DNA from: Dehalobacter sp. DCM
Lineage (GTDB): Bacteria; Bacillota; Desulfitobacteriia; Desulfitobacteriales; Syntrophobotulaceae
NCBI RefSeq assembly: GCF_024972775.1
Contig: NZ_CP092282.1
Span: forward strand, 3,747,525 to 3,811,524
Length of the DNA: 64,000 bases
Direction: 5' to 3'
Made by a program: the position numbers and the translations under genes. The number at the start of each line of letters is the position of its first letter. Positions within the stretch are counted from its first letter, which is position 1. Of the stretch, positions 3,973 to 38,524 are shown piece after piece. The notes under the pieces were generated by a model that saw only the letters and a list, made by a program, of their open reading frames with translations, was not told where the DNA came from and ran no database searches.

Positions 3973-4515
3973 CTAAGGTGTCACTGTTAATTTCACCGTA
4001 TTCTTACACCATTTGTTCGAGGGCTGCTCTTTTAAGATAGTCATCAGCGGGCCGCTGTTTCCTAAAGCCTCACCGTCCCGATTATATGCAAGTATACTGC
4101 CTTCCGCATTGATCATATCCGGTGTGTACTCGCAGGCATAATCATCTGAAGCGACAGCGGAAACCTTGGTGTACGCCTTCACTCCAGCTGCTTCCAGAAC
4201 TTTTGCCAGCGGGATTCCGGTGTATTCGTATTCCTGCTCCGATCCGTCTTTTTTCTTCATTGTCGCCTTCAAAGTGACTGCCGGAATGGCTCCCAATTCT
4301 TTTTCGGTCAGGGTCACTGTAGCGGATCCGTTAACAACATCGATGGTACAGGCGGGAACACTGCTTCCGGCAGTATCTGCCGGAGCCTGATTATTGTTCT
4401 GGGGCGCGTTGGCATTCGCATCCTGTTTAGCACCGGATGAACAGCCTGTCAGAACCAGTGCCAAAGAGAGCATAAGAACCGGTACAATAAGTAACTTTTT
4501 TGATACCTTGAACAT
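3973..4515 (-). CDS. lipoprotein with one sulfite-oxidase/YedY-like (Oxidored_molyb-like) beta-domain
   Basis: Signal peptide plus lipobox LTGC. The domain core (TGIPLAKVLEAAGVKAYTKVSAVASDDYACEYT...ILAYNRDGEALGNSGPLMTI...KW) resembles the G-[VI]-P-L / DGY / NGE-L / P-RL signature. Start chosen at ATG 4515 (MFKVSKK), 7 nt after GGAGGAG; the track start 4530 lies inside that SD. Confidence 0.6.
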   Translation of the reverse strand: MFKVSKKLLIVPVLMLSLALVLTGCSSGAKQDANANAPQNNNQAPADTAGSSVPACTIDVVNGSATVTLTEKELGAIPAVTLKATMKKKDGSEQEYEYTGIPLAKVLEAAGVKAYTKVSAVASDDYACEYTPDMINAEGSILAYNRDGEALGNSGPLMTILKEQPSNKWCKNTVKLTVTP

Positions 4516-4561: not shown

Positions 4562-5386
4562 TCATCCAAAATAAAATGACAATAAGAATAAAATTACAAC
4601 AAGTATTCCCAGCAAAGCGATAACGGCATCTTTCCGGGTGAACAGCAGCGGGGTTAAAAATGTGCGTTTTGGATAAAGGCCAAATGCCCTGCCGTCCATG
4701 GACATACTCAGGGTATCTACCCGATGAATCGTCGTTGCCAGCAAGGGAACTAAAAGATAACGCAGCATGTTCATCAACCGTGTCCAAGAAAAGCCGTCAT
4801 AACGGACACCTTTTAAGCGGACAGCCAAGCGGATCTGACGGAAATCATCCTGGTATCCCGGAATAAAACGCAGTGCGGTAATCAGCATGAATCCCCAGCG
4901 ATAAGGAAGTCCGGCTTGAATCAAGCCCTGAACCAGCTTCATCGGATCGGTCGTGGCCACAAAAAGGAAACTGAGGCCGATGAGGTTTAGAAAACGCATT
5001 GCCAGCGCCAAGCCTTGCCCTAACCCCTCCGACCAGATCCCGAACTGCCATGGCCCAAGTCTGAACTGCCATAGCGGTGCCCCTTGCTGGCGGAAAAGAA
5101 TTTGGATAAGCAAGATAAACGCAGCAAAAAACAGAATGAACCGCAGTTTCCGGAGCCAATACCCCAAGCCTAAACCGGAAGAAATATACCCCATAAGCAA
5201 TATCCCAAGCAGTACAGCCCCTCGCGCCGCTTCGGCACTGATCAGCACCAGGCTGGCAAAAGCAAGCAAGAAACCTACTTTAACCAATGGATGAAGCTCC
5301 TGGATCCAGGAACTCCCCGGTATGAACTTCAGACCGGCCAAATCATCAAATTCCAATAGTTTATTAAAGAAAGACCGCGATTTCAT
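4562..5386 (-). CDS. ECF transporter transmembrane (T) component, EcfT/CbiQ family
   Basis: Polytopic membrane protein with the conserved C-terminal Arg/Gly motifs of EcfT. The start ATG 5386 overlaps the upstream ATPase stop (ATGA), indicating translational coupling. Confidence 0.8.
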   Translation of the reverse strand: MKSRSFFNKLLEFDDLAGLKFIPGSSWIQELHPLVKVGFLLAFASLVLISAEAARGAVLLGILLMGYISSGLGLGYWLRKLRFILFFAAFILLIQILFRQQGAPLWQFRLGPWQFGIWSEGLGQGLALAMRFLNLIGLSFLFVATTDPMKLVQGLIQAGLPYRWGFMLITALRFIPGYQDDFRQIRLAVRLKGVRYDGFSWTRLMNMLRYLLVPLLATTIHRVDTLSMSMDGRAFGLYPKRTFLTPLLFTRKDAVIALLGILVVILFLLSFYFG

Positions 5387-6921: not shown

Positions 6922-8009
6922 TGAAGGACAAACCGGCTTACTTTTTGGGCCCAGTAACCACCTTCGTAATTCGCGGCAATTATCCGCAGCGTGGTTTCTT
7001 TCCCTTTATTTTCTGTGAGCAGCATTTTGTCGTCGTTCATGACTTTAGCCAGATCAAACGTCACCTCATAGCCGTCGGTGGCAATAACCTTTAATTCTTT
7101 CGCCTCAGGCAAGGGCCGGGCATCCTTAAGAATAATCCGGACTGGCACACCGGTATAATCCTGCTCCGGTATATGGGTAACCTTGCCGTTGAGGGCTGCG
7201 CTGATTGTTACCTCCTCGCTGGCATACGCTTTTAATCCTGTCTTCATCGGCTGTTCGACTTTTCCTTCGATGCTCAGTACAACACCCTGCCACGGCAGCT
7301 GATAAATATTTTTATAGTAATATATTGCACCGCCTGTAAAAGACAAAAGAATGATAACCGCTAAACCAAGGGACATCCCAGTGAGGATTTTTTTCTTTGG
7401 GGAAACCGTTCGCTCTTTTTCTACCGCAAGCCGTCCCGGCCGCAGTGTCGTTAATAAGGCGAGGGATTGATGCGTCAAATAGCCACCGAAAATCGCCCCA
7501 GAAACTAGTGCAGCCAGGCAGATCAAACCGATATAGACAAAGGAGGCACCTGAAAAATACAGAATTTGAAAAACAATCACATTGGATACAGATGCTAAAG
7601 CACCGGCAATCACCAATGTGGGTAAATTAATCGTTTGTTTGCTTAAGAATATTATTATTTCAATAATTAACCCCTCAATAACGCAAACGAGGACGATGGG
7701 TAGTCCATGCGGGCTGCCGGTAAAAAACTCAACCAATCCTTTAATCAGACCGGCGGCGGCTGCGGCCCCGCGTTTACGGATCAGGCAGGGAACCATTAAC
7801 AACCAGAAAACATGGAGTCCGGCGATAAACTGCCCGGCTCCGAAAGGAACTCCGACCAGGCGATTCAAGATATTGCCGATATAACTGATATATGTACTCA
7901 GAACGCCGCCCAAGCCGCTGATCACAGCGATCATCAGGATATCCCTGCTTCTGCTCTTATAAGTTGTTTGCAGTGGGGGTTGCTCCACCTTATGCTGAGG
8001 CGTCTCCAT
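6918..8009 (-). CDS. ECF S-component-like polytopic membrane protein fused to a C-terminal extracytoplasmic YedY-like domain
   Basis: The N-terminal ~190 aa are hydrophobic with Gly-rich helices and sit in the S-component position immediately upstream of A and T. After a further TM the C-terminus (GVPVRIILKD...ATDGYEVTFDLAKV...GGYWAQKV) repeats the domain seen in the lipoproteins. The start overlaps the upstream stop (TAATG). Confidence 0.55.
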   Translation of the reverse strand: METPQHKVEQPPLQTTYKSRSRDILMIAVISGLGGVLSTYISYIGNILNRLVGVPFGAGQFIAGLHVFWLLMVPCLIRKRGAAAAAGLIKGLVEFFTGSPHGLPIVLVCVIEGLIIEIIIFLSKQTINLPTLVIAGALASVSNVIVFQILYFSGASFVYIGLICLAALVSGAIFGGYLTHQSLALLTTLRPGRLAVEKERTVSPKKKILTGMSLGLAVIILLSFTGGAIYYYKNIYQLPWQGVVLSIEGKVEQPMKTGLKAYASEEVTISAALNGKVTHIPEQDYTGVPVRIILKDARPLPEAKELKVIATDGYEVTFDLAKVMNDDKMLLTENKGKETTLRIIAANYEGGYWAQKVSRFVLQ

Positions 8010-9637
8010 TATTTAACCTCCATTCTTACGACATACCTTGCCCACCGGGCTCCGGCAGACGCGTAAGTATCCCAACCTTCACCCGGGGCGGACGTAGCGG
8101 AACAATCCGCATTATCATAAAGTCCATCGGCAGTTAAGAATACGATACGATAACCGTCCTGCCACTCGGGCGGCTGGCTGCCATTCCATTGGGTAGCCAG
8201 AATCATTTCCCCTTGTGCTTCCTGCCAACCGGCTTTTTCCGGATAGACATTACCGTAAGAATACGTCTGTTGGTAGCCGTCGACAGAGGTTATCACCAGT
8301 GTATTGTTTTCCGTCATACCGCCTACTTTTTCAAGAAGAGCTCGGATCGGGATCCCCGCATACGTTCCGGCGCCGCCGATATTGCCGTACTGGTTTTGGA
8401 AAGAAGCTTTCCCTTCAACCTCGGAAGCGGCAAATAAACCGTCGAAATCTTTGGCTTGCAACACCATGGAACCCGTGGCTCCTGTAACCGTTAGAATATC
8501 TCGCCTCGCCGGCGGATCAAAACGGTTGACTTTAATCGCCAGGGATGTGTTTTCGCTGTTAGCAGTGTTATTGGTGTTATTGGCGTTATCGGCGCTGACC
8601 AACAGCCAGTGATGGTAACCGCCTGCACCCGGCTCAGCATAGAGGTTGGCCCCGCCGCCCCCGCTGGTAATCAACGGCACGCCGTACTGACTGTACTGGT
8701 TAAACAGATGGATATGCCCGTTCATCACCGCCTCAATGTTTTGCTTGTGAAGTTGTACCATTGTTAGAAACGTTTTTGCAGCAGCCGCATCGGTCAGGGC
8801 ATGGTCTTCTTTTGCGCCGCGGGGATCCACAGCAGGGATATGCATAAAAATCATCACTTTTGATTGCTGGGACAGTATACCATTGAGGTAAGCAAATTGT
8901 TCCTGAGACACCGTACCCACGGAATCATCAATGAAAACCAGGGTTTTACCTCCCCATTCAAAATCGTAATGCGCCGGAGCCAGCAATTTCTCATAGAGGG
9001 AGGTTCCGCCGCCTTTGATGTCATGATTGCCCGGAACCGTATAAATCGGGCAAAATAATTGCTGTGCAGTTTGGAGAAAGGCCTTATATTCATCCTCCGT
9101 GCCGCTGGCGGTCATGTCGCCAAGATGAACAACAAAATCCGGCTGCACACGGTTGATCTGTTTGATTGCCCCTTGGAAAGATTCATTGTTGCCCTGGGTA
9201 TCGCCGATCACAGCAAAAGAACCTGCTGTTCCCCACGCCGCAGCGGGCTGAAGCAGGAGTTTCCCTTGCAAACCCTTGGGGATAGCGACCGTAATTTTTG
9301 TGGAAAGCGGCTGTTGGATTTGGACACCGGCTTGCGAAAGGTCGACTGTTCCATGTTCCCCTGTCAAGGAACCCTGCATCTGCTCAGCCGGAACATTGCT
9401 GATTTCAATCCGGCATTTTTGCCTGCTGCTAAGGTCAAACGCAATCACCGGTTGCCAAGCACGGTATACATAGACAGGTATTCCGTCGTCAGCAGGTAAT
9501 GCTGACTGCAGGACTGCCCCTTTGACTTGGGGCGCACGCTCAGAGAGTGAAGACTGGGTAGCTGTTGTACTGCAGCCGAATACAACAAGACAGCATAATC
9601 CAATCAACAACGTTGTTAACAATCTTACTTTTCTCAT
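8009..9637 (-). CDS. lipoprotein metallophosphoesterase (calcineurin-like) with C-terminal YedY-like domain
   Basis: Lipobox VVFGCS. Phosphoesterase motifs GDMTASG, GNHD and GHIH are present. C-terminus: GIPIRALLEKVGG...TSVDGYQQTYSY...ATQWNGSQPPE...GYRIVFL. Confidence 0.75.
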   Translation of the reverse strand: MRKVRLLTTLLIGLCCLVVFGCSTTATQSSLSERAPQVKGAVLQSALPADDGIPVYVYRAWQPVIAFDLSSRQKCRIEISNVPAEQMQGSLTGEHGTVDLSQAGVQIQQPLSTKITVAIPKGLQGKLLLQPAAAWGTAGSFAVIGDTQGNNESFQGAIKQINRVQPDFVVHLGDMTASGTEDEYKAFLQTAQQLFCPIYTVPGNHDIKGGGTSLYEKLLAPAHYDFEWGGKTLVFIDDSVGTVSQEQFAYLNGILSQQSKVMIFMHIPAVDPRGAKEDHALTDAAAAKTFLTMVQLHKQNIEAVMNGHIHLFNQYSQYGVPLITSGGGGANLYAEPGAGGYHHWLLVSADNANNTNNTANSENTSLAIKVNRFDPPARRDILTVTGATGSMVLQAKDFDGLFAASEVEGKASFQNQYGNIGGAGTYAGIPIRALLEKVGGMTENNTLVITSVDGYQQTYSYGNVYPEKAGWQEAQGEMILATQWNGSQPPEWQDGYRIVFLTADGLYDNADCSATSAPGEGWDTYASAGARWARYVVRMEVK

Positions 9638-22281: not shown

Positions 22282-23649
22282 TCATGTATCCTTCCGCTTA
22301 AGATTGGCCGTGACAGAATTGCTGTTTCTAATAGTATCAGCCATTCCTAATAAAATATTTTTATTATTCAACTCCGGGTTCTGCAAAACCTCTTCCATCA
22401 AATACCTTAGGGTATCGCCTAATCGCTTTCCCGGTTCAAAACCAATCATCCTCAGATCATTGCCATTCACCTTCAAATCCTTCAAGGCTAAAGGTTCTTT
22501 CTGGTTCAAAATACGTTCGACTTCTTTTCTCTGCCTGATGATTTTACTAAAGTCGTGAGGCGGCTTGCTTCCTTGGACATCTGCCAGCTGAAGTGCGAAT
22601 AGATCGTCCAAATTGTCAACGCCGACTCGGGTAATGAACCTTTTTATACTGGCAGTGCGCAGGGTGTCATACCGATACATATGATTATAGACGAGAATTC
22701 CAACTTTCTTCACTGTATCATGATCGAACTTTAAGCGCAACAAAATGTCTCTGGCCATGTCCGCGCCCAGTTTATGATGCTCGTAAAAATGACCAATGCC
22801 ATCTTCACCCAATGAAAATGCTGCCGGTTTCCCGATATCGTGCATTAAAGCCGCCCACCTTAGGGACAACGTATTGGGAACCGCATCCAGAACAAGCATA
22901 GTGTGTTCCAATACATCTTTATGATGATGCGGATTATGCTGATCAAAATCTGCCAGGCTGCAGATTTCAGGAAGGAAATAGCGCAATAATCCGGTTTTGT
23001 ATAAAAGGCTGATTCCCCGGCTTGGGAAATCAGAAATCAATATTTTATTCGTTTCCTCTCGGATTCTTTCCATGCTGATCCATTGAATCCGCTCCCTGTT
23101 TCGACAAAGCGAGTCGTAAACCACGCCATCGATAGTGGCGCCAAGCTGGCAGGCAAAACGAATACACCGCAGCATGCGCAGGGCATCTTCTCTGAATCGC
23201 TCGTCGGCATTGCCAACGGTGTTGATCACGTTCGCGCGAATCGCTTCCTGCCCACAGAATGGGTCGACGATACCCGTTTTCGGATTATAGGCAATCGCAT
23301 TCATCGTAAAATCCCGCCTGGCCAGATCCTCAATCAATGAGGATGAATATTTGATCGTGTCCGGCCGCCGGTTGTCCGAGTATTCGCCATCGATTCGATA
23401 CGTCGTCACTTCAAACGGCTCATGATCCAGCATCACGGTAATCGTCCCATGCTTCAGGCCGGTAGGAATGGTATGGTAATCCTTAAACACAGTGAGCATT
23501 TGCTCCGGCAAGGCGTTGGTGGTAATATCCCAATCCTTTGGCATTACCCCCAAGATCAGGTCACGGACGCAGCCACCCACGATAAAGGCTTCGTATCCGC
23601 TGAACTCTAATATTTCAATAATTCTTTTAGCTTTTGGATTTATAAGCAC
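22282..23649 (-). CDS. cca: CCA tRNA nucleotidyltransferase with HD phosphohydrolase domain
   Basis: Pol-beta head GGCVRD...DWD and HD motif ALMHDIGKP. GTG start with AGGAG 7 nt upstream. Confidence 0.8.
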   Translation of the reverse strand: MLINPKAKRIIEILEFSGYEAFIVGGCVRDLILGVMPKDWDITTNALPEQMLTVFKDYHTIPTGLKHGTITVMLDHEPFEVTTYRIDGEYSDNRRPDTIKYSSSLIEDLARRDFTMNAIAYNPKTGIVDPFCGQEAIRANVINTVGNADERFREDALRMLRCIRFACQLGATIDGVVYDSLCRNRERIQWISMERIREETNKILISDFPSRGISLLYKTGLLRYFLPEICSLADFDQHNPHHHKDVLEHTMLVLDAVPNTLSLRWAALMHDIGKPAAFSLGEDGIGHFYEHHKLGADMARDILLRLKFDHDTVKKVGILVYNHMYRYDTLRTASIKRFITRVGVDNLDDLFALQLADVQGSKPPHDFSKIIRQRKEVERILNQKEPLALKDLKVNGNDLRMIGFEPGKRLGDTLRYLMEEVLQNPELNNKNILLGMADTIRNSNSVTANLKRKDT

Positions 23650-23843
23650 ACGAAACTCCTATACTTCTGATTAGTCAAATCGCTGGGGGATTCAACGGTA
23701 ATTCCCCTGACATCAATGTCCGAACCTACGGTGTTCGTCCCATAAGCATAAGATCCGCTTAAGGTCAGTAAGATAACATGCTTACCGAGATGGGGTTCGT
23801 TTCGGATAAATTGATATTCAGGTTGCTGCAATAACTCTTTCAT
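23640..23843 (-). pseudogene. truncated nucleotidyltransferase (67-aa N-terminal remnant with intact SD)
   Basis: LTLSGSYAYGTNTVGSDIDVRG is the N-terminal nucleotidyltransferase fold motif of ~250-aa proteins. The ORF stops after 67 aa and its last codons overlap the cca start. Confidence 0.45.
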
Positions 23844-24242
23844 GATATTTCTTCCTCTTTAAGGAGAATGTATTACCTTATATGATATCACAAATTAGGG
23901 AATAAGCATCTTTCTCCGTCTATGCATCGCTCCAAGACTGCCGGAGCATACTAAGCATTCATTAAAACAAAACATCATGTACTTCTATTTTTTACCGAAA
24001 CACAGGCCCTTTGTCTTTTTATTTCCTATTTCAGGGATAATTATGAGCATGGTATATTCCCGGGTATTAGTCAACTTGGAAATGTTCCATGAACCTGAAA
24101 ATTTCCTAATAAGAGCAGGTAATTTTACGTTTTGGTTTGCGCTTGCAACCTGGGGCTACTTTAAATTAAACAGTTATATTGAAACAAAACATCATAAGCA
24201 TGAATGTCAGAAGGATTAGAAAAGAGGTATACAGGTTTGATG

Positions 24243-24385
24243 ATCTATTCCAGCCTTTATTGACCTTGCCAATACAGATCAGGCTGCCGTTCCACATATT
24301 GATTGGAATTAACAGACGTTCCCCGGGCTATCGCGGACACCGCCCAATACATATGATCATCGCTTCGGTATCGATATAATTATGG
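24243..24385 (-). pseudogene. rtcB-paralog fragment
   Basis: About 140 nt with ~85% nucleotide identity to 30399..30540 inside rtcB (ccagcctttatt...gatcaggctgccgt...catattgattggaat...cgcttcggtatcgatata). No ORF spans it. Confidence 0.6.
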
Positions 24386-24424
24386 CTATTTGTGATTTAT
24401 TTCACTTAATTAACTTCATCCCTT

Positions 24425-24530
24425 CCTTCAAGGGCAACGTTATCGGAGCCGCGTCCAGAACGAGCAAGATATAATCCAACACATTTTGATGATGACGCCG
24501 ATACTGCTGATCCAGGCGGAGGTTTTACAA
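24425..24530 (-). pseudogene. cca/HD-domain paralog fragment
   Basis: About 105 nt with ~70% identity to 22850..22960 of cca (gcgtccagaac.agca...tgatgatg.cg.at..tgctgatc). No ORF spans it. Confidence 0.5.
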
Positions 24531-24622
24531 ATCGGGAACGTTGGTAAATAAATGGGACAATTGCCCTGGTCTTTTTTATTCAATCGCTTTGAATTACAAG
24601 GGATTTTATTTCGTTATTGTAT

Positions 24623-24638
24623 TGGCACGCTATTTGCA
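24623..24638 (+). promoter_or_regulatory. sigma-54 (-24/-12) promoter
   Basis: TGGCACGCTATTTGCA matches the TGGCACG-N4-TTGCW consensus exactly. It lies 97 nt upstream of the ATG at 24735. Confidence 0.7.
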
Positions 24639-24734
24639 ATATTAGTCTGTGAAACCCAGCGCTGGAGGTTTCCAACAGTTATCTATCAATAATGAAGAAT
24701 GATGAAAACATTATCAGAAAGGAAGGTCGAATCA

Positions 24735-26972
24735 ATGGAAGAAAAAAGCTGGTCATATGCTCAGCATTCCAAACCTTTCAAGTATCAAGAAGGTAATCTT
24801 ACAGTCACTAGGGGTAGTGCCTGGTCAGGACCTGGCTGCCATCTCGGCTGCGGTGTCCTGCTCTATACCGACGAAAACGGTAAACTGGTCAAAGTGGAAG
24901 GAGATCCGGAAAATCCTTATAACGACGGCAGACTTTGTGTTCGATGTCTGAACGTCAATGAAGTGACCAACCACAAAGACCGGCTGCTATATCCCATGAA
25001 ACGTGACCCAAAAGACCGCGGCAAAGATAAATGGGAACGCATCAGTTGGGACGAAGCTTATGACATTATTGTCGAAAAGTTCAATAAAATTAAAGACGAA
25101 TTCGGGGCAGAAACCATTCTCTTTACACAAGGGACTGGGCGCGATATTGCCCAATGGATTTCACGGCTTGCTTGGTCTTTCGGATCACCAAACTATTGCT
25201 ACCATCTTTCTGGTGCAGCCTGTTATCTGCCGCGCGTCGCCGGCATGGCCGTCACCACAGGGGGCTACTGGGTAGCCGATTGTTCACAGCAATTTATTGA
25301 CCGTTATGACAACCCCCAGTATCAAGTACCTGAGACTATGTTCGTTTGGGGTAATTATCCGCTTACCTCCAACTCAGACGGATTTTATGGCCACTGGGTC
25401 ATCGATTTAATGAAACGCGGCATGAAGATTGTCTGCATCGACCCCAAGGTCACCTGGCTGGCTGCCCGTGCGGAAGAGCATCTGCGGGTCCGTCCCGGTA
25501 CCGACGCTGCCCTGGCCCTGGGTATGCTCAATATCATTATCAACGAAGAACTCTATGATAAGGAATTCGTTGAAAAATGGACGCATGGCTTCGATCAGTT
25601 GAAAGAACGGGTACAGGAATACCCTGTGGAAAAAGTCGCTGAAATCACCTGGGTGCCGGCGGAAAAAATCCGCAATGCAGCGCACATTCTGGCAAAAAGC
25701 AAACCGGCGACCATGCAATGGGGACTGGCTGTGGATATGACCAAAGAGTCGCTGCCGGCAAGTCAAGCCATTGCTGCGCTGTTCTATATCACTGGCAATG
25801 CTGATATCCCGGGCGGGATCATTATGCCCCCCGAACTCCTTCCTTACTCCGGCGGTTTCGGCCATGATCTCTTGAGTCCGGAACAGGCAGAAAAACGTAT
25901 CGGTTTAAAAGATTATCCAATCTTCCAGTACGGCTTCCAAATCGCTCAGCCTGATGCCGTTCAAAAAGCACTGGAAACAGATGACCCTTACAAAATCCAT
26001 GCCGGCTGGTTCCAAACCACCAATCCCATTGCCTGTGTTGCCGCTCAGCCGAAGCGTTGGGCCGAAGCAGTCAAGAAACTGGACTTCGTTGTTTTCGTCG
26101 ATATTTTTATGACCCCTTCCATCATGGAAGTCGCAGACATTGTTCTGCCGGCCGCGACGTTCCCTGAGCGCGACGGACTCCGGGTTGGCGACGGTGTACA
26201 AAGAGGCGAAGTCATTAACAAAGTCACCCAAATCGGGGAATGCAAGTCGGACATGCAAATCAACCTCGAACTGGGCAAGCGCTTTAATCCTGCTGCTTGG
26301 CCATGGGAAAATGTCCAGGCAATGTTCTCCGATATTCTGAAACCGACCGGTTTCTCGTTCCAGGAACTTCAGGAAAAAGCGCCGGCCTATATGCCCTTTA
26401 CCTACAAACGCTATGAAAAGGGTCTTTTCAGACCGGATGGGCAGCCCGGGTTTAATACCGGTACCGGGAAAATCGAACTTTATTCTACGTTCTACGAAAT
26501 GGTCGGCCTTGACCCATTGCCCTACTTTGAAGAACCGTCTCCCGGACCGGGCGCCACACCGGAGCTTCTGGAAGAGTACCCGCTGGTGCTCACGACCGGT
26601 GCCCGTATCTGGAGCATGTTCCATTCGGAACACCGCCAAATAGAACGCAACCGTGCTTTCAGACCGGATCCGGAGATTGAAGTTAATCCGGACACGCTCA
26701 AAAAGCTTGGGATCAAAGACGGCGATTGGGTTTGGGTAGAAAACGAACGCGGTCGGGCCAAAAGACGCGTCAAAGGCACTCCGGTAATCGATCCGCGCAT
26801 GTGTTCGTGTGATCACGCCTGGTGGCGGCCGGAAGCAGGCCCTGAAAACCTTTATGATGTTTTAGACCTGAACATCAACAATCTCGTTCCCTGGATTCCC
26901 GGCAAGAGCGGATTTGGTTCCAATTTCAAAACCATGCTGTGCAAGCTTTATAAAGTGAAGGAGGGAGAATAA
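24735..26972 (+). CDS. molybdopterin oxidoreductase catalytic subunit (DMSO-reductase superfamily), cytoplasmic
   Basis: N-terminal Cys motif (CHLGC...CVRC), no Tat/Sec signal, about 745 aa with MopB-like architecture. Start chosen at MEEKSW, 9 nt after AAAGGAAGG. Confidence 0.85.
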   Translation: MEEKSWSYAQHSKPFKYQEGNLTVTRGSAWSGPGCHLGCGVLLYTDENGKLVKVEGDPENPYNDGRLCVRCLNVNEVTNHKDRLLYPMKRDPKDRGKDKWERISWDEAYDIIVEKFNKIKDEFGAETILFTQGTGRDIAQWISRLAWSFGSPNYCYHLSGAACYLPRVAGMAVTTGGYWVADCSQQFIDRYDNPQYQVPETMFVWGNYPLTSNSDGFYGHWVIDLMKRGMKIVCIDPKVTWLAARAEEHLRVRPGTDAALALGMLNIIINEELYDKEFVEKWTHGFDQLKERVQEYPVEKVAEITWVPAEKIRNAAHILAKSKPATMQWGLAVDMTKESLPASQAIAALFYITGNADIPGGIIMPPELLPYSGGFGHDLLSPEQAEKRIGLKDYPIFQYGFQIAQPDAVQKALETDDPYKIHAGWFQTTNPIACVAAQPKRWAEAVKKLDFVVFVDIFMTPSIMEVADIVLPAATFPERDGLRVGDGVQRGEVINKVTQIGECKSDMQINLELGKRFNPAAWPWENVQAMFSDILKPTGFSFQELQEKAPAYMPFTYKRYEKGLFRPDGQPGFNTGTGKIELYSTFYEMVGLDPLPYFEEPSPGPGATPELLEEYPLVLTTGARIWSMFHSEHRQIERNRAFRPDPEIEVNPDTLKKLGIKDGDWVWVENERGRAKRRVKGTPVIDPRMCSCDHAWWRPEAGPENLYDVLDLNINNLVPWIPGKSGFGSNFKTMLCKLYKVKEGE

Positions 26973-26974
26973 GA

Positions 26975-27310
26975 ATGGCTAAGTATGGACTTCTGATCGA
27001 TTACAACTGGTGTACCGGTTGCCATTCCTGTGAAGTAGCCTGCCAAATGGAGTTAGGCCTTCCAGTCGGCCAGTATGGCATTAAACTGACGGAGCTCGGC
27101 CCATGGGAGTATGCACCGGGAAAATGGCAATTGACGTATGTCCCTATTCCCACTGACCAATGCACATTGTGTGATAAACGGGTCGCTATGGGGAAAATCC
27201 CCTCTTGCGTTCAGCACTGTCAGGCAAAATGCATGCAATACGGGCCCTTAGAAGAACTCTCCAAACTGCTGCTTGATCATCCGAAACAGGTACTCTATTC
27301 GTTGGATTAA
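26975..27310 (+). CDS. 4Fe-4S dicluster ferredoxin-type electron-transfer subunit
   Basis: CTGCHSCEVAC and CTLC...CVQHCQAKC cysteine clusters. The gene starts 3 nt after the alpha-subunit stop behind a GGAGGGAG SD. Confidence 0.8.
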   Translation: MAKYGLLIDYNWCTGCHSCEVACQMELGLPVGQYGIKLTELGPWEYAPGKWQLTYVPIPTDQCTLCDKRVAMGKIPSCVQHCQAKCMQYGPLEELSKLLLDHPKQVLYSLD

Positions 27311-27400
27311 GGTTCTGCTGGAACGGGGAAGCGGCCGGCGGTGTACACTCGTCCGCCGCCGAACTCACCCAGCATCCAACTGTACGAAAGGAGCAAAATC

Positions 27401-27790
27401 ATGAACGTGTTGAAACCAATCTTATCCGCTTTCGTTGTCGGAGGAATTTTTTCCGTCATCGGGCAGTTCCTGGCAAACGTGTATACCTCGGCACTCGGAC
27501 CAGGAAATCCATTAATCGACATTTTTACCTTAATCTCACTCGGCCTGATTGGTGCGGTGTTGTATATTACCGGCATCCATCAAAAGATTGAGAAGTTTGG
27601 CGGATACGGGACTATCCTGCCTTTTAACGGCTTTGCCGCCGCCGTAGCAGGTACTTTTTCAACAGCGAAAGCCCAGGCCGGCACTTCTGCTGCGGGAATA
27701 AAAGCAGCCGTATCGCTTGTTGTGTATGTACTGGGTATCGGATCAATTTTAGCGGCAATCGTCGGCATCGTCGCATTTTATACCGTATAG
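27401..27790 (+). CDS. SpoVAC-family membrane protein
   Basis: KPILSAFVVGGIFSVIGQFLANVYTSAL and GTILPFNGFAAAV align with SpoVAC (KNCLYAFFVGGLICVIGQ..., GTLVPITGFANSV). SD AAAGGAG. Confidence 0.75.
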   Translation: MNVLKPILSAFVVGGIFSVIGQFLANVYTSALGPGNPLIDIFTLISLGLIGAVLYITGIHQKIEKFGGYGTILPFNGFAAAVAGTFSTAKAQAGTSAAGIKAAVSLVVYVLGIGSILAAIVGIVAFYTV

Positions 27791-27802
27791 GAGGTTATTT
27801 TG

Positions 27803-28171
27803 ATGTATCTTACAGCGTTTCTTCTTGGCGGTATCCTTTGTGCACTTTTTCAAATATTCGGCATGTTTACGAAGCTTGATCCGCCGCGTGTTCTTATTTT
27901 AGGTGTTGCTATAGGCGGATTGCTGACGCCTTTCGGTATGTTGGCACAACTTGGTCAGTGGGGCGGCGCCGGGCTTACCGTCATGTGTATGGCGGCCGGC
28001 AGTGCCGTGACCGGCACCACGATGGCGCTTCTTGGCGGCAATCCGGTGCCAATTCTGATGATCCTTGGTCTCTTTGTCACTTTGACACTTATCGGGATCG
28101 TAGCAGGCTTAATTCGTGCGGCAGTGACAAAAGATACTGTCGTGAACAATGTACAAAGCGCTAATAAGTAA
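27803..28171 (+). CDS. SpoVAEb-family membrane protein
   Basis: MYLTAFLLGGILCALFQ... parallels the SpoVAEb N-terminus. SD GGAGG. Confidence 0.7.
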   Translation: MYLTAFLLGGILCALFQIFGMFTKLDPPRVLILGVAIGGLLTPFGMLAQLGQWGGAGLTVMCMAAGSAVTGTTMALLGGNPVPILMILGLFVTLTLIGIVAGLIRAAVTKDTVVNNVQSANK

Positions 28172-28387
28172 GACTAAAAAAATTAACGCTTAACGTTTAA
28201 TCAGGATGGCCCGTCAATGTTTTTGCCGGGCCGTCCTAACGCTGATATCCTTATTGGGTACATTATTTTTAATATGGAATTAACGATCGTTATCCTTTAT
28301 AATTAATCATCATCAACGAAATGTTTATATCCTGACCACCCAGCCCGGAATTGTGTTTTTGCCTGTTATTTGGGAGGTGTTTTGTAT

Positions 28388-30139
28388 ATGATTCATTCTT
28401 TCTATAACAAACAAGATATCATATCGACTTCTGAAGTCCATACAGCTATAACTGCGATCAACTTTCAGAAAGAGCTTTTCTTACACAGCCGTAAGAACCA
28501 TGACACAACTTCCTTGTTAAGACCGGAGGTAGCTACTTCATGGAAACGATCCAAAAAATTGAAGATCGACCCAGAAATGCAGGAGCTTGCCCATGCCCTA
28601 AGTGAAAAGGAACTAAACGCACTATTGTACGATAAGCGAACATTTGTAGATCTGACGAAAACTCACCTTTATAGTTTTCTCCCCCTGCTCAATATACCCA
28701 AATGTGCCATTACGATCTTTGACGAAAACGGCACCTTATTAGACGTGTCTGATCCTTATCAACTGCTTCGTCTCAACCCGCACAGTGGTTCAATCTGGAG
28801 AGAAGAAACCGTTGGCACCACTTCGACTTCTCTCTCCATGGAATACGGAAAAATCGTTCAACTATCCGGACCACTTCATTATTGCAAAGCGCTGGAGAAT
28901 CAGTTGGCCACAACGGCACCGGTCTACGATTTAGAGGGAAATCGCTTAGGGATTATCACGATTATTCATCATCTCAGCGATGAGCTGTTTAATGTAGAAA
29001 CCAGCCAGCGGATTTTGCTTTGGATATCCGCTTTGCGGTATATGGTGGAAAGTCAATTCGCCCTGTTAAAACGCAGCTATACTCTGAATGGTGGGGGATT
29101 TGAAGGGAGAAACAGAGAATATCTCCTTCCTATACCGGAAGATCACAACATGCTTGACTGCTATGAAAAAGGGCTAACGGCAAACAGTCCTTTTTCGACG
29201 ATCTTGGGCGAGAGTCCGCAAATCCAAAACGTAATCCGGACGGCGGAACGCTTTGCACCAAGCGAGAGCGGTATTCTCCTTACCGGAGAAAGCGGTACGG
29301 GCAAAGAAATGTTTGCTCAGGCTATTCATCAGGCCAGTGGAAGAAGCGGTCCTTTTGTTGCGATTAATTGCGCTGCTCTTCCCGGCAATCTCATTGCCAG
29401 TGAATTGTTCGGATATGTCGGAGGGGCTTTCACCGGTGCCGAAAATAAAGGCCGCTTGGGGAGAATTGAATTGGCTAAGGAAGGAACTTTGTTTTTGGAT
29501 GAAATCGGCGATATGCCTTTGGAAATTCAGCCAAATCTTCTGCGTGTGCTGGAAGACAAAAAAGTCACACGGTTAGGCAGCAATAAAGACATTCACGTTG
29601 ACTTTCGTCTGATTGCAGCAACTAATGTAGACCTTTTTCAGCTTGTACAGGAGAAAAAATTCCGTGCTGACTTATATTACCGCCTGGAAACACTGCAAAT
29701 GAAATTACCACCACTTCGAGAAAGGGGTCGGGATATTTTGCTGATTGCGAACTATTTTCTGGAGGAAATTTGCACAAAAGCCGGACGGGCACCGCTCAAA
29801 CTAAATAAAGATACGGAAACATTCCTTCTTAAACACGCTTGGCCGGGGAATATCAGGCAGCTTAAAAACGCTATGGTTTACGCTGCAAATATGTGTCAAG
29901 GGCAAGTCATTACGCTGCTTGAGCTGCCTGAAAGCGTTTATCGCGATATGGATATGGCGTTACCAGAAAAAGATTTAGTAAATTTTCCAATGTCTTCTCT
30001 TCAAGAGATAGAACTAAATTCAATAAAAAAAGCTCTGCTTTTATCCGGAAATAATGTACGCGGTGCTGCAAAAGTGTTAGGATTGAGCAAGACTTCCATT
30101 TATCGAAAAATAAAAGAATACAATATTGACATAACGTAA
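28388..30139 (+). CDS. sigma-54-dependent transcriptional activator (AcoR-like N-terminal sensor, AAA+ core, Fis-type HTH)
   Basis: GESGTGKEMFAQAIH and the GAFTGA motif in the AAA+ core. C-terminal HTH AAKVLGLSKTSIYRKI. N-terminal SWKRS-containing sensor domain. SD GGGAGG. Confidence 0.85.
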   Translation: MIHSFYNKQDIISTSEVHTAITAINFQKELFLHSRKNHDTTSLLRPEVATSWKRSKKLKIDPEMQELAHALSEKELNALLYDKRTFVDLTKTHLYSFLPLLNIPKCAITIFDENGTLLDVSDPYQLLRLNPHSGSIWREETVGTTSTSLSMEYGKIVQLSGPLHYCKALENQLATTAPVYDLEGNRLGIITIIHHLSDELFNVETSQRILLWISALRYMVESQFALLKRSYTLNGGGFEGRNREYLLPIPEDHNMLDCYEKGLTANSPFSTILGESPQIQNVIRTAERFAPSESGILLTGESGTGKEMFAQAIHQASGRSGPFVAINCAALPGNLIASELFGYVGGAFTGAENKGRLGRIELAKEGTLFLDEIGDMPLEIQPNLLRVLEDKKVTRLGSNKDIHVDFRLIAATNVDLFQLVQEKKFRADLYYRLETLQMKLPPLRERGRDILLIANYFLEEICTKAGRAPLKLNKDTETFLLKHAWPGNIRQLKNAMVYAANMCQGQVITLLELPESVYRDMDMALPEKDLVNFPMSSLQEIELNSIKKALLLSGNNVRGAAKVLGLSKTSIYRKIKEYNIDIT

Positions 30140-30148
30140 TTATCGGCA

Positions 30149-31357
30149 TTAATCCTCTTCTCCCGCTTTAAAGTTATAGATGGGTTTGATGATCTTGTCG
30201 ATGTCCGCGGTGGGCCCGATATTGTTTACGATATCATCCATATTTTTATAGGCCATTGGGCACTCATCGAGGGTATCTTTATTCACCGACGTGGTATAGA
30301 CATCCTTCATTTGTTTCTTGAATTCGGATAACGTAAACGCTTGTTTGGCCTTCGTCCGGCTCATCAGCCGCCCTGCCCCATGGGGCGCAGAATAATTCCA
30401 GCCTTTATTCCCCTTGCCGATGCAGATCAGGCTGCCGTCCCGCATATTGATTGGAATCAGCAGGCGTTCCCCTGCCTTCGCGGACACCGCTCCCTTACGT
30501 AAGATCATCGCTTCGGTATCGATATAGTTATGGGTGGTCGTGAATTGTTCCACTACGTCGAGCTTCATTCCTTTGACGATCTCCATGACCATGGCTTTAC
30601 GGTTCAATTCGGCAAACTGCTGAACGATTTTCATATCATGGATATAGTCATCAAACAGATTTCCGCTGACATAAGCCAGTGCATAGGGGACATCCGTAAT
30701 CACTTGACTTTTCAGTTCTTTTAAAGCCTTGGCGATCTCTTTATCCCGACCTTCGGCTTTATAGCGGGCAATCAAGGCTTCCAGATCCGGCTTTTCATTT
30801 TGGTTTAACTGTTGGTAACCGGCTTCCTGATAGTATTTGGCTACTTCCAGCCCCAAATGACGGCTGCCCGAGTGCACGACAACATACAAATCGCCTTCCT
30901 GGTCTTTATTGACCTCAATAAAGTGATTGCCTCCGCCTAATGTACCGATACTCTTCTGCGCTCTGTCCAGTTTGACTGCCTTCAGACAGCGCAGCGCCGT
31001 CAGGTCGATCTGTTCGTTATACCGGTGCGGGGTCTCCCTTACGGTATAGCCCGACGGAATGGATTCATAGATCAATTTATCCAGCTTCTGCAGCTCCAGC
31101 CGTTTATTGCTGATCCGGATGGTTTCCATCCCACAGCCGATATCCACCCCAACTAAGTTGGGAACCACTTTATCGGTAATCGTCATGGTAGTGCCGATGG
31201 TACACCCGGCCCCGGCATGGACGTCGGGCATGATCCGGATTTTACTGTCTTTGGCAAATTCCTGGTTGCATAGCGTTGCGATCTGGGACGCTGCGCCTTC
31301 CTCTAGTGTATCTGTAAATATTTTGGCTATATTATATTTTCCTCTAATTTCTTGCAT
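30149..31357 (-). CDS. rtcB: RNA-splicing ligase RtcB
   Basis: Full-length 402 aa with metal-ligand motifs (PDVHAGAGCTIG, HNYI..., HGAGR). Confidence 0.9.
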   Translation of the reverse strand: MQEIRGKYNIAKIFTDTLEEGAASQIATLCNQEFAKDSKIRIMPDVHAGAGCTIGTTMTITDKVVPNLVGVDIGCGMETIRISNKRLELQKLDKLIYESIPSGYTVRETPHRYNEQIDLTALRCLKAVKLDRAQKSIGTLGGGNHFIEVNKDQEGDLYVVVHSGSRHLGLEVAKYYQEAGYQQLNQNEKPDLEALIARYKAEGRDKEIAKALKELKSQVITDVPYALAYVSGNLFDDYIHDMKIVQQFAELNRKAMVMEIVKGMKLDVVEQFTTTHNYIDTEAMILRKGAVSAKAGERLLIPINMRDGSLICIGKGNKGWNYSAPHGAGRLMSRTKAKQAFTLSEFKKQMKDVYTTSVNKDTLDECPMAYKNMDDIVNNIGPTADIDKIIKPIYNFKAGEED

Positions 31358-31445: not shown

Positions 31446-32564
31446 TTAATCGCTCACTTTTGCCGTCAACAGATGATTCAGCTGTTCGAGCAGAGTACCC
31501 CCGCCAGTCAGGGAAATACTGCCGATCTTATCACAGATCTTCTCCAGGAATTCCAGTTCTTTTAAGCGGTATAGTGTTTGGTTTTCCTCCATCAACTTGG
31601 CTGTATTCATAAGACTCCGGGTCGAAGCGATCTCCTCTCTACGGGTGATGACGTTGGCCTGGGCACGTTTTTCAGCCACCAGTACGGTATTCAAAATATC
31701 TTTAATATCGCCGGGCAAGATAACATCTTTAACCCCGACAAAGACAAATTCGGCCCCGAAAGCAGTACTTTTCTCTCTTAATTTCTCTAGGACAAAAGTT
31801 CCGACTTCTTGCTTTTTCTGAAGCAGGTCATCCAATCGCAACGAACCGACGTATTCTCTTAAAATAAGCTGCAGCATAATGTAAAGCTGTTCCTCGAATG
31901 ATTTGATTTCAAGCACCTGTACGGGATCAACAATTTTATACTGGCAGACAAAGTTCAAGCGTAAGCTGATCTTATCTTCCGTCATGATTTCCTGTCCGTT
32001 CAAATCCAGTTGCTGCTGCCGCATATCCAGATTCCTGACGGCAACCTGAACGGGACTCTTCCAGTAGAAATACTTCCCGGGATTTAGTGTTTTCTGCATA
32101 ACGTTATTGTAATAAAGAATCCCTTTTTCATGGTCGGCAACTTCCCAATAGCTTAAGTATCCCGCCAGCTTCGGGTGATAAAACAACGCCGGTTCGATGC
32201 CGTTTTGGATTTCCGGATTGCGGATATCAATGGTGATAAAATCATGCTGTTTCAACAGCTTCCAGTATGCATATTTACCGGATGGCAGAACATCGATAAA
32301 TTTGCCGTCTTCATAATGGAGCACAAGCTCGTAATCCCGAACATCGATGACTGCAAGCTCCTTCAGCAGCTCGGAATCTTCCAGGAAGAGATTGATATTT
32401 TTACCGCTTGTCTCAAATCGGTTATTAATATCCGTAATTATTACTTTATATCTGCCAAATGGATTGAGGATATATCTTCCTGGTTTCAAGCATTTAACAT
32501 AATTGCCGTCCTTAAATAATAATCCTCTCTCGTCATTTTTAATCCTTACTCTCATAACATCCAC
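31446..32564 (-). CDS. cytoplasmic SPFH/band-7 domain protein with N-terminal triple PGxY beta-repeat extension
   Basis: The C-terminal ~200 aa are SPFH-like (LRLNFVCQYKIVDPVQV..., coiled-coil tail). There is no TM; the N-terminus carries three repeats of KPGRY/PSGKY/NPGKY. Confidence 0.65.
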   Translation of the reverse strand: MDVMRVRIKNDERGLLFKDGNYVKCLKPGRYILNPFGRYKVIITDINNRFETSGKNINLFLEDSELLKELAVIDVRDYELVLHYEDGKFIDVLPSGKYAYWKLLKQHDFITIDIRNPEIQNGIEPALFYHPKLAGYLSYWEVADHEKGILYYNNVMQKTLNPGKYFYWKSPVQVAVRNLDMRQQQLDLNGQEIMTEDKISLRLNFVCQYKIVDPVQVLEIKSFEEQLYIMLQLILREYVGSLRLDDLLQKKQEVGTFVLEKLREKSTAFGAEFVFVGVKDVILPGDIKDILNTVLVAEKRAQANVITRREEIASTRSLMNTAKLMEENQTLYRLKELEFLEKICDKIGSISLTGGGTLLEQLNHLLTAKVSD

Positions 32565-33045
32565 CTCTTTATCTTGACATTGGTTTGAACCTTTTTCGAG
32601 AATCCTTCCCGAAGTTCGGCGGAGTACTGCTTTAGGAGCATAGACCTCCGTTGTTACCGGAATAAATTATGTTTCGGGCATTGCCCGTCATAAATCATCC
32701 CCAAAGTAAGAGCGGATTTGTTTTGATCCGGTATCCGCGTACTGCAAGGCTTACGTTCAGGTGTCCTGAGCAGACCGGCTGTCCAGAACGTAAGGATTCT
32801 CGTCAAAGATTCCTTTTGGCTCCATGAAATTTCTCGATTCTCAGTCGCGTGCTTACCACAGCTTCAGATGTCACTAATCTGACGGGGAGTCGAACCCCTT
32901 TGGTGTTTCTAACCCCTTGCCGGCATACCTCACTCTGAAATTAAGGAGGCACCGTAAGACCCTACCGAAATCTTCGCAATGAATTAGGAACAATTTAAGT
33001 ATATAGGGAAAATTTAGGGCTCTAAAGACAAAAAGTTTGCAACCT

Positions 33046-35350
<2,305 letters not shown>

Positions 35351-37266: not shown

Positions 37267-38466
37267 CTATTTAATGCCGAGCGACTTCACTTTGCGATAC
37301 AGGGTAGATTTGCTGAGGCCAAGTATTTCCGCTGCCTTAGCGATATTGTTGCCGGTGATGAGCATCGCGTTCCGTATCGCATTTTCTTCAGCGTTTCTTA
37401 CGGTATATTCCTGATCGACCTCAGCTGATGGTTGATCGATTGTTAAAGAAGGCACATTCTCTTCCACACGGGTTTTACTATTTCTAATTCCACACATCAC
37501 TTCCAACGGCAAATCCTTCGGCAGGATGATATCATGCTCGTAAATGTGCAAGGCATAAATCATCGCATTCTCTAATTGCCGTACATTACCCGGCCAATGA
37601 TAATCCAGTAATTTATATTGGGCATCTTTATCAATCACAGGAACTTTACTGCCGGCAGGGCAGTGTTTCTTTATTAAAAACTTAGCCAGAGAGATTATGT
37701 CTACCCCCCTCTGACGCAAAGGCGGAATATTTACCGTAAGTACGGAAAGACGATAAAATAAATCCAGACGAAATGACCCTTCTTCAACCATAATTTGAAG
37801 ATCTTTATTGGTTGCTGCGATTAATCTGAAATCGACGGGCCGATACTGTTGTCCGCCAACACGTAAGACCTGTTTATTTTCCAACACTCTTAAGAGTACA
37901 GCTTGTGTTTCCAGCGGCATATCGCCGATTTCATCCAGAAAGAGGGTACCACGTTCGGCTAATTCAATCTTGCCCTGGCTCCCGCCTTTCTTGGCCCCTG
38001 TAAACGCGCCTGCGTCATAGCCAAATAACTCACTTTCGATGAGATTCCGTGGTATCGCAGCACAATTCAGAACCACAAAATTCCCTTCAGGGCGGCCCTG
38101 ATTATGAATTGCCTGAGCAAATAGTTCTTTGCCTGTACCACTCTCACCGATCAGAAGGATATTTGCCGAAGATGGCGCAAAACGCTTCGCCAGCTTTTTG
38201 GCTTGAATCATCTGGTCGCTCTCCCCAATGATACTATTCAAGTCAAAACCGGTTTTGAGCCCGTGATTCACAGTCTCTTCATATTCATCATTATCGATTA
38301 TTTCTTTAACTTCCTCGTCATTGGACGGCAGTTCAACATACTCAAAATTTTCTTCTGCTTTCAATTGCGCATCGCATTTAATACAGTTTAATCGTGTTCG
38401 TGGATTTGCTGCGCCACAGTTCGGGCAGACTTTAATTTTAGTAGGCGTCGTCGGGCGAAAGCACAT
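37267..38466 (-). CDS. sigma-54-dependent activator with N-terminal zinc ribbon in place of a sensor domain
   Basis: CPNCGAANPRTRLNCIKCDAQL zinc ribbon, acidic linker, AAA+ core (GESGTGKELFAQAIH, GAFTGA), C-terminal HTH. ATG 38466 follows AGGTGGTG; the track start is a GTG inside that SD. Confidence 0.8.
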   Translation of the reverse strand: MCFRPTTPTKIKVCPNCGAANPRTRLNCIKCDAQLKAEENFEYVELPSNDEEVKEIIDNDEYEETVNHGLKTGFDLNSIIGESDQMIQAKKLAKRFAPSSANILLIGESGTGKELFAQAIHNQGRPEGNFVVLNCAAIPRNLIESELFGYDAGAFTGAKKGGSQGKIELAERGTLFLDEIGDMPLETQAVLLRVLENKQVLRVGGQQYRPVDFRLIAATNKDLQIMVEEGSFRLDLFYRLSVLTVNIPPLRQRGVDIISLAKFLIKKHCPAGSKVPVIDKDAQYKLLDYHWPGNVRQLENAMIYALHIYEHDIILPKDLPLEVMCGIRNSKTRVEENVPSLTIDQPSAEVDQEYTVRNAEENAIRNAMLITGNNIAKAAEILGLSKSTLYRKVKSLGIK

Positions 38467-38524
38467 GGGATTAAACACCACCTGAATTCAATAGGTCTCT
38501 CTAATAATTTATTATACAATAATT

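Follow-up and report, generated by a model that had tools for sequence, protein, structure and literature searches.

An accessory RNA-repair operon of Dehalobacter sp. DCM is split by a metabolic module, and four dead gene pieces lie at the seam. The operon is located in a 64-kilobase (kb) stretch of DNA (hereafter the window, to which coordinates refer unless another locus is named), within which we surveyed RNA-repair genes, gene fragments, and promoters. The rtcB gene (30149 to 31357, minus strand) is intact and encodes a 402-amino-acid (aa) RNA 3'-phosphate ligase (Pfam RtcB, E 9e-64). The cca gene (22282 to 23649, minus strand) is likewise intact and encodes a 455-aa CCA-adding tRNA nucleotidyltransferase with an HD domain. 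A third gene of the operon, RlaP, survives as a short stub beside cca. We consider it likely that the region from 23640 to 24700 is a non-functional rearrangement scar, at which the operon was split by a molybdoenzyme module and the debris of a duplication was left behind. This reading accounts almost base by base for an 855-bp "intergenic" region. The scar is a genuine pseudogene mosaic of an ordinary, well-understood kind, and there is little about it that is new in type.

The operon and its contiguous relatives

The cca gene is the last gene of the broken operon. Its product carries the Pfam domains PolyA_pol, PolyA_pol_RNAbd, HD, and tRNA_NucTran2_2 and is 100% identical, in a protein comparison, to a Dehalobacter sp. 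DCM protein. The next-best match in the databases searched is from Desulfosporosinus sp. OT (78% aa identity), and all others are 63% identical or less. On the other side of the interruption, rtcB is now the last gene of an upstream half-operon (31446 to 35329, minus strand). According to Pfam, this half-operon comprises a WYL/WCX regulator (35329 to 34043, with both WYL and WCX domains), a WCX protein (34053 to 33055, with a WCX domain), and an SPFH/Band-7 protein (32564 to 31446).

The corresponding cassette of Desulfosporosinus sp. OT (locus L081) is contiguous. There, a 428-aa WCX-domain protein and a 335-aa protein are followed by rtcB (402 aa), RlaP (332 aa), and cca (448 aa), with a spacer of 44 nucleotides (nt) between rtcB and RlaP and with cca overlapping the end of RlaP. 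A metagenome-assembled genome (MAG) of Anaerovoracaceae (locus L036) also keeps the full order of two WYL-like genes, SPFH, rtcB, RlaP, and cca. The window rtcB is 84.5% identical to that of L081 at the nucleotide level over all 1209 nt, without a gap, and cca is 76% identical; the two window regulators match the L081 pair with 76% and 74% aa identity. Because of the DNA identities with L081 (84.5% for rtcB, 77% for what remains of RlaP, and 76% for cca), the three genes of the window are orthologues of a single cassette whose genes lie side by side in other genomes.

Similarity to L081 breaks off at the rtcB stop codon (30149 to 30151) and picks up again at 23859. Where L081 has its 44-nt spacer, the window has 6289 nt between the rtcB stop and the RlaP spacer, and five genes on the opposite strand lie in this interval. 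With 76% to 85% nucleotide identity, L081 is the closest locus and lacks the interruption, and no nearer genome was found in the databases searched. An intact, contiguous rtcB-RlaP-cca cassette is absent from the window: RtcB and Cca are full length, RlaP is truncated, and there is no second RlaP elsewhere in the window. An earlier note on this DNA, made from its letters alone, had missed this split of the resident operon, in which rtcB was parted from the formerly adjacent RlaP-cca pair by a 5.6-kb module.

Both cca and rtcB would have stayed under selection since the break. This is suggested because both are full length and show low ratios of nonsynonymous to synonymous substitution rates relative to L081 (dN/dS 0.11 for cca and 0.06 for rtcB; dN 0.16 and 0.055, respectively), while fragments of less than 200 nt at the same locus gained stops and insertions or deletions (indels). 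The locus appears to offer a natural case of an rtcB-RlaP-cca cassette that has lost RlaP and in which RtcB and the CCA-adding enzyme are still selected.

A WYL/WCX pair is located before rtcB in three genomes, namely at 33055 to 35329 (minus strand) in the window, at 5217 to 7497 in L081, and at 4210 to 6418 in L036. Because the pair precedes rtcB in all three, its position suggests that this type of cassette is under the control of WYL-type sensors and not of RtcR.

Two further features near these genes were noted. A weak Rfam match to group-II-D1D4-3 in the 3' end of cca (22300 to 22416, minus strand; 22.6 bits, E 0.38) falls below the gathering score of 32 and is probably due to chance. 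A 79-aa open reading frame (ORF) after rtcB (29910 to 30149, minus strand) was considered as a second RlaP remnant and was rejected; it has no Pfam match, is antisense inside the activator gene of the module, and shows no similarity to the RlaP proteins of L036, L069, and L043.

Decayed pieces of rtcB and cca

The earlier note had described three decayed pieces of RNA-repair genes near cca, and all three are real. Their E values are 2.5e-44 for the rtcB piece (rtcB') and 4e-10 for the cca piece (cca') with blastn, and 1.3e-6 for the RlaP piece with Pfam. A sensitive blastn search of 23640 to 24700 against the rest of the window, a check that the note itself had suggested, recovered both the rtcB and the cca match. 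Positions 24247 to 24406 align with rtcB positions 30395 to 30554 (84.5% identity over 161 nt), and positions 24432 to 24512 align with cca positions 22864 to 22944 (75.3% over 81 nt). These values are close to the first estimates of ~140 nt at ~85% and ~105 nt at ~70%. Because both matches are plus/plus, the fragments share the minus strand with their parent genes, and they abut each other directly, as had been stated. In shuffle controls based on local-alignment scores, rtcB' scored 189 compared with a maximum of 27 for shuffled sequences, and cca' scored 62 compared with a maximum of 25. Chance similarity, which was named at the outset as grounds for discarding the pieces, is ruled out by the E values and the shuffles.

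The rtcB' fragment (24247 to 24424, minus strand) corresponds to codons 262 to 321 and contains three in-frame stops and two 1-nt indels. It is followed by a 13-nt tail (24234 to 24246, minus strand) that exactly matches codons 388 to 392 of rtcB (30183 to 30195, found with blastn) and whose alignment score of 26 exceeds the maximum of 23 obtained with 2000 shuffles. The tail is collinear with the main piece, which gives an internal deletion of ~198 nt (codons 322 to 387). Altogether, ~65 of the 402 rtcB codons remain. The cca' fragment (24425 to 24517, minus strand) retains 33 of 455 codons, those numbered 232 to 264 at the start of the HD domain, and carries a 9-nt deletion and one stop. No filler separates cca' from rtcB', and at their junction (24428 to 24421) one AAGG tetranucleotide is followed directly by another.

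The ancestry of the fragments was examined by counting sites in three-way alignments with an outgroup. Over a 158-nt core, rtcB' is 85.4% identical to the resident rtcB, 75.3% identical to L081, and 66.5% identical to L036. Ten sites unite the fragment and the resident gene against L081 and L036, compared with three and zero sites for the alternative groupings. Because of this 10:3:0 site support, rtcB' appears to be a copy of the resident-lineage gene that was made after the split from the Desulfosporosinus cassette. Changes unique to one sequence in the core number 14 for the fragment, four for the resident gene, and 20 for L081, and the rtcB' branch evolves ~3.5 times faster than the resident rtcB. 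The 88 nt of cca' available for comparison are 72.7% identical to the resident cca and 70.5% identical to L081. Their phylogeny is star-like, with 13 unique sites in the fragment, eight in the resident gene, and 10 in L081, and with informative sites divided 0:2:1, such that the placement of cca' is not settled. Given the faster evolution of cca, these counts are compatible with an origin of cca' in the same event as rtcB'.

Changes on the fragment branch are of all types, are spread over the codon positions, and lean from GC to AT (13 versus six). A repeat pair of a diversity-generating retroelement (DGR) was considered and rejected, as the mismatches are not adenine-specific (C to T, G to A, T to A, A to T, and others) and are accompanied by indels. 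Both rtcB' and cca' combine homology with a broken frame and with faster change than the functional copy, as is characteristic of pseudogenes.

The RlaP stub and the start of cca

The third piece is a 67-aa ORF (23640 to 23843, minus strand). As originally described, it is the N terminus of a nucleotidyltransferase with a Shine–Dalgarno sequence and with a stop that overlaps the cca start. Its Pfam matches are RlaP (PF10127, E 1.3e-6) and NTP_transf_2. Codons 1 to 56 are homologous to full-length RlaP and share 78.6% aa identity with residues 1 to 56 of the 332-aa protein of L081. At the nucleotide level, 23859 to 23677 aligns with L081 positions 9003 to 9185 at 77% identity (blastn). A deletion of ~790 nt has removed codons 57 to ~322, after which 11 codons in another frame run into the cca start, where the TAA stop of the stub overlaps the GTG of cca by 10 nt. 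The ribosome-binding site GAGGAAG upstream of the stub lies within the surviving 16 nt of the rtcB-RlaP spacer (23844 to 23859, minus strand). This remnant forms the right edge of the 6.3-kb interruption, and the homology that begins there, at window position 23859, corresponds to L081 position 9003, located 29 nt past the rtcB stop of L081.

The stub shows no acceleration: in 165 nt, it and its L081 orthologue carry 10 unique changes each. Because the two are equal in this respect, the RlaP deletion appears to be recent and much younger than the rtcB' and cca' debris. The function of RlaP would have been lost, and the stub would be at most an upstream ORF terminating at the start of cca.

Because cca is selected yet severed from its operon promoter, it should need a promoter inside the scar and would be transcribed from there. 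Consensus scans of 23500 to 24800 found no sigma-70 promoters and no intrinsic terminators. A lenient scan returned a single extended −10-like candidate, TGATATCAT (TG-A-TATCAT; 23890 to 23882, minus strand), located 44 nt before the ATG of the RlaP stub. This motif may be a promoter for the stub and cca, a suggestion that is inference only.

The inserted sigma-54 molybdoenzyme module

The DNA between the debris and rtcB (24521 to 30139, ~5.6 kb) appears to be a self-contained module that brings its own promoter. Its regulatory region (24521 to 24698, plus strand) consists of conserved upstream sequence, with homology to locus L086 from 24523, and a sigma-54 promoter, TGGCACGCTATTTGCA (24623 to 24638). 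The site fits the pattern TGGCAC-N5-TTGCA, which is unique in the window compared with 0.03 occurrences expected, and no second promoter of the form TGGCAC-N5-TTGCW is present anywhere in the window. Desulfitobacterium chlororespirans (locus L084) carries TGGCACGGGATTTGCA at the equivalent position. The module genes (24699 to 30139, plus strand) encode, according to Pfam, a molybdopterin oxidoreductase, a 4Fe-4S protein (26975 to 27310), two SpoVAC-like proteins (27341 to 27790 and 27800 to 28171), and a sigma-54 activator (28370 to 30139). The oxidoreductase is 88% identical at the aa level to that of D. chlororespirans and 61% to 70% identical to those of Gordonibacter, Ellagibacter, and Adlercreutzia. 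The same gene set in the same order is found in L084 between unrelated genes and, in part, in L086 with the activator on the other side. DNA homology of the module spans 24523 to 30132, so that the module borders directly on cca' at one end and on the rtcB stop at the other. The activator homology ends between 30127 and 30132. No transposase or integrase was found in the module, all five ORFs of which match Pfam domains of metabolic or regulatory proteins. A search for inverted repeats within the scar gave no matching pairs, and the far module ends were not given a dedicated repeat search.

The sigma-54 promoter and the activator belong to the molybdoenzyme module and not to RNA repair, and the promoter faces the oxidoreductase, on the strand opposite to rtcB. 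As the module brings its own promoter, the sigma-54 promoter beside the debris is unrelated to Rtc regulation. Regulation of the RtcR type was considered and rejected for this activator. The 589-aa protein has Pfam matches only to Sigma54_activat, an AAA lid, and HTH_8, and its N-terminal ~277 aa are without a Pfam domain; there is no RtcR/CARF domain. It is homologous to the module activators of L084 and L086, which are its closest DNA relatives (69% to 74% nucleotide identity). The position of the sigma-54 promoter and activator near rtcB is an accident of insertion.

Several side observations concern the module. The longest ORF of the oxidoreductase (757 aa from 24699) is probably 12 codons too long. 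The true start is likely at 24735 (745 aa), because most of the closest homologues have 745 aa, the start in L084 is equivalent, and the ribosome-binding site AAGGAAGG lies ahead of it. The oxidoreductase may be linked to the catechol dehydroxylases. The pairing of a molybdoenzyme with SpoVAC/SpoVAEB-like small membrane proteins is unusual. The activator and rtcB are convergent, with 9 nt between their stops (30137 to 30151; the activator ends at 30139), a gap too short for a terminator. Because this gap leaves no room for a terminator, transcription of each gene would enter the other. Elsewhere in the window, a second sigma-54 activator (37267 to 38481, minus strand; 404 aa) has an AAA+ domain that starts at residue 84, which leaves little or no sensory domain.

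A membrane-protein fragment and a direct repeat

The debris between the module and the RlaP spacer amounts to ~660 nt (23860 to 24520) and is not made of RNA-repair genes alone, as the earlier note had supposed. Most of the space left by rtcB' and cca' is filled by a fourth gene fragment (23974 to 24219, plus strand), on the strand opposite to the others and unrelated to RNA repair. This is the C-terminal half (~75 to 80 aa) of a membrane-protein gene that is truncated at its 5' end, with an open ORF from 23977 to 24219. A word-indexed protein search with this 80-aa ORF returned no candidates, and an exhaustive HMMER search identified six homologues (E 2.3e-13 to 1.2e-4; 31% to 41% identity). 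The homologues are hydrophobic proteins of 94 to 218 aa from an uncharacterised multi-pass family, and the match is always on their C-terminal part. The fragment keeps seven of seven invariant residues, and the conserved N-terminal NYG...PIxW block is gone. The N-terminal part of the gene was not found elsewhere in the window.

An 18-nt direct repeat accompanies this fragment. One copy, ATTAAAACAAAACATCAT (23961 to 23978, plus strand), is positioned exactly at the 5' truncation point, and the other, ATTGAAACAAAACATCAT (24178 to 24195, plus strand), lies inside the 3' end. The copies are identical at 17 of 18 positions, and the pattern occurs twice in the window compared with 0.03 expected; the repeat is also significant in comparison with shuffled sequences. 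The repeat could result from a template switch, from a small duplication, or from an att-like site. The ~100 nt that remain (23860 to 23960, no strand assigned) are filler without an assigned origin that resembles neither other parts of the window nor phage records. The wider interval from 23844 to 24240 gave no match to phage genomes and no better similarity to the rest of the window than shuffled sequences.

A hidden intact gene in another frame was also considered and rejected. The ORFs at 24179 to 24379 (plus), 24440 to 24583 (minus), and 24552 to 24692 (plus) have no Pfam match, and the sole ORF with homologues (23977 to 24219, plus) is a truncated gene that stops short of the rtcB' tail. 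Annotators should be warned that two ORFs here are remnants, the 67-aa nucleotidyltransferase ORF and the 80-aa membrane ORF, and that the sigma-54 promoter beside rtcB is unconnected with Rtc regulation.

History of the locus and alternative explanations

We propose that the ancestor carried a contiguous WYL regulator-WCX-SPFH-RtcB-RlaP-CCA operon. A partial tandem duplication would have produced the arrangement rtcB-RlaP-cca(1-264)::rtcB(262-402)-RlaP-cca. The molybdoenzyme module would then have replaced the RlaP of the first copy together with the 5' part of cca'. Deletions in rtcB' and AT-biased erosion may have followed, and a piece of a membrane-protein gene would have been inserted and truncated. 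More recently, the ~790-nt deletion inside the surviving RlaP would have created the 67-aa stub. Bacterial pseudogenes are removed piecemeal through deletional bias. A tandem duplication is favoured because a 3'-truncated distal gene is joined head-to-tail to a 5'-truncated proximal gene on the same strand and without filler. Under this history the resident copy should be the closest relative of each fragment, which was found for rtcB', while cca' gave the 0:2:1 distribution of informative sites noted above.

The earlier note had proposed the past duplication and loss of a cca-like/rtcB-like paralog cassette. The view of the rtcB and cca pieces as decayed copies of RNA-repair genes, produced by duplication and then loss, is borne out, and the lost paralog cassette is not. 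The fragment order from cca' to rtcB' reverses the operon order from rtcB through RlaP to cca, which speaks against a decayed cca-rtcB cassette. Moreover, the 67-aa stub, which had been taken for a relic of the lost paralogue, is the RlaP of the resident operon, located at the orthologous position directly upstream of cca.

Several points weigh against the history that we favour, and some weigh against the lack of function. Tandem duplication followed by erosion needs at least five events, and we infer their order, since neither an intact operon nor a tandem duplicate was observed as an intermediate among the relatives. Between the copies, where the rest of the duplicated unit would be expected, the module is found in place of a first-copy RlaP and the 5' portion of cca'. 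The cca' fragment is phylogenetically unsettled and could predate rtcB'. In the databases searched, no genome is closer than 78% cca identity, and our examination, including the count of gene copies, covered the 64 kb of the window. The membrane fragment, which is open and has all of the family-invariant residues, could be expressed and useful, and the same could be true of the unaccelerated RlaP stub. Finally, the consensus scan revealed no promoter for cca.

One alternative is that the mosaic arose in one step, when the module was inserted into the rtcB-RlaP spacer by template-switching repair that copied nearby patches (cca, rtcB twice, and a membrane-protein gene), such that a full tandem duplication never existed. 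This process would resemble microhomology-mediated break-induced replication or fork stalling and template switching (MMBIR/FoSTeS), which is not known to be documented for this bacterial group, a point on which no search was made. Such an origin would need fewer events than duplication and erosion. All of the foreign DNA is in one block, from the rtcB stop to 16 nt before the RlaP ATG, as is expected from a single insertion site. The patches are short (13 to 180 nt), abut without filler, and have sources within 2 to 7 kb, and the membrane fragment has, at its 5' breakpoint, 18 nt duplicated from its 3' end. However, the two rtcB pieces keep the order and orientation of the parent gene, as a simple internal deletion would leave them, and the window does not contain the source of the membrane fragment. 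The junction between cca' and rtcB' keeps both AAGG copies rather than one, and the RlaP deletion is a later, separate event outside a one-step account. We therefore regard template switching as unlikely. It is also quite improbable that rtcB' and cca' are xenologues, that is, relics of a second cassette acquired horizontally from a close donor. The cassette is mobile, with RlaP-cca pairs present in phage-like contigs (see below), apart from Desulfosporosinus sp. OT, other sequenced genomes offer no close counterpart of the cassette, and cca' is about equally far from the resident cca and from L081. Nevertheless, rtcB' and the resident gene have 10 derived sites in common, compared with three and zero for the alternatives, which would place the donor closer than any known sequence. 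The reversed order of cca' and rtcB' would still demand a head-to-tail array.

It could also be that the fragments were kept for a function, either as a new promoter or leader for cca or as a plus-strand antisense RNA (24220 to 24520) directed against the rtcB mRNA. The selected cca, cut off from its operon, needs a transcription start within 23860 to 24520. An antisense RNA would be 85% complementary to rtcB, with stretches of perfect complementarity as long as 24 nt, and the interval from the membrane-fragment ORF to the antisense side of rtcB' contains no predicted terminator. On the other hand, Rfam contains no family that matches 23640 to 24700 at E ≤ 1, predicted folding energies on the two strands are no better than those of shuffled sequences (z = +1.47 and +1.39), and the consensus scan detected no sigma-70-like promoter on either strand. 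The ~3.5-fold faster evolution of the fragment branch, with its stops and indels, is likewise not what is expected of a functional element, and we give this proposal next to no credence. In a combined form, the transcript of 23860 to 24520 would serve as the sole promoter and leader of cca and would also yield a pseudogene-derived antisense RNA that pairs with rtcB mRNA. Such a co-opted mosaic is extremely improbable; if true, it would tie the expression of rtcB to that of cca now that their operon is split. Read as the product of duplication, insertion, and erosion, the scar is a compact case of module insertion with duplication debris, and, if closer relatives are sequenced, it could be used for testing models of template switching versus duplication and erosion.

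Erosion and mobility of the cassette elsewhere

A similar loss is seen in the Desulfosporosinus-like metagenome contig Ga0209639_1000896 (locus L083). Positions 7636 to 8822 of this contig contain an intact orphan RlaP and the first ~55 codons of cca, with no rtcB, and the RlaP region is 97% identical to that of L081 at the nucleotide level. This locus is an independent break-up of the same cassette. Pairs of RlaP and cca are also found in phage-like contigs. One pair (L082, 7806 to 10102) lies among many small ORFs, an NAD-dependent DNA ligase, and GmrSD, and another (L093, 3929 to 6210) lies near Mu Gam, SLT, and AAA_24. The RlaP-cca pair appears to travel with phages. More distant cca homologues (57% to 58% identity) are located in housekeeping contexts. 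Because of the erosion in L083, the phage-like RlaP-cca pairs, and the housekeeping contexts of distant cca genes, we conclude that the cassette is accessory and mobile. No RlaP or rtcB debris was found upstream of the orphan cca in L091. The erosions in the window and in L083 point the same way, which suggests that the cassette can be lost one piece at a time and is frequently reshuffled.

Comparison with known systems

Before ligation, RlaP extends damaged RNA 3' ends by one to two nucleotides, and it is encoded in RtcB operons (PMC12776372). Phage RNA ligases have end-restoring partners, among which both RlaP and CCA-adding enzymes are listed (PMC7824862). The order of the operon in the window, with rtcB followed by RlaP (PF10127, an "RNA ligase-associating Pol-beta" nucleotidyltransferase), is that of known RtcB-RlaP operons such as rtcB-rlaP-rtcA in Pseudomonas. 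In contrast to these operons, RlaP is reduced here to 56 homologous codons and the operon is split by 6.3 kb. Compared with the Pseudomonas type, the third gene encodes a CCA-adding enzyme instead of RtcA, and the regulators are of the WYL/WCX type instead of RtcR.

In E. coli, Rtc is regulated by RtcR, a sigma-54 activator with a CARF domain (PMC4012209, PMC7790460). The locus resembles the Rtc systems of E. coli and Salmonella, in which RtcR controls rtcBA, in that rtcB adjoins a sigma-54 activator and is near a canonical −24/−12 promoter. However, the activator of the window lacks an RtcR/CARF domain and is convergent with rtcB, and the promoter drives the oxidoreductase. There is also a likeness with the molybdopterin oxidoreductase modules of Desulfitobacterium and Eggerthellaceae. 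The gene order in L084 is the same, and the homologues are named only "molybdopterin-dependent oxidoreductase" or "anaerobic selenocysteine-containing dehydrogenase." This likeness concerns the inserted module and not the scar.

The scar itself shares with bacterial pseudogene remnants its truncations, stops, frameshifts, accelerated AT-biased branch, collinear pieces, and head-to-tail join, and it differs from them in nothing essential. What is unusual is that remnants of at least three genes, on both strands, are packed into ~660 nt at the edge of an inserted module.

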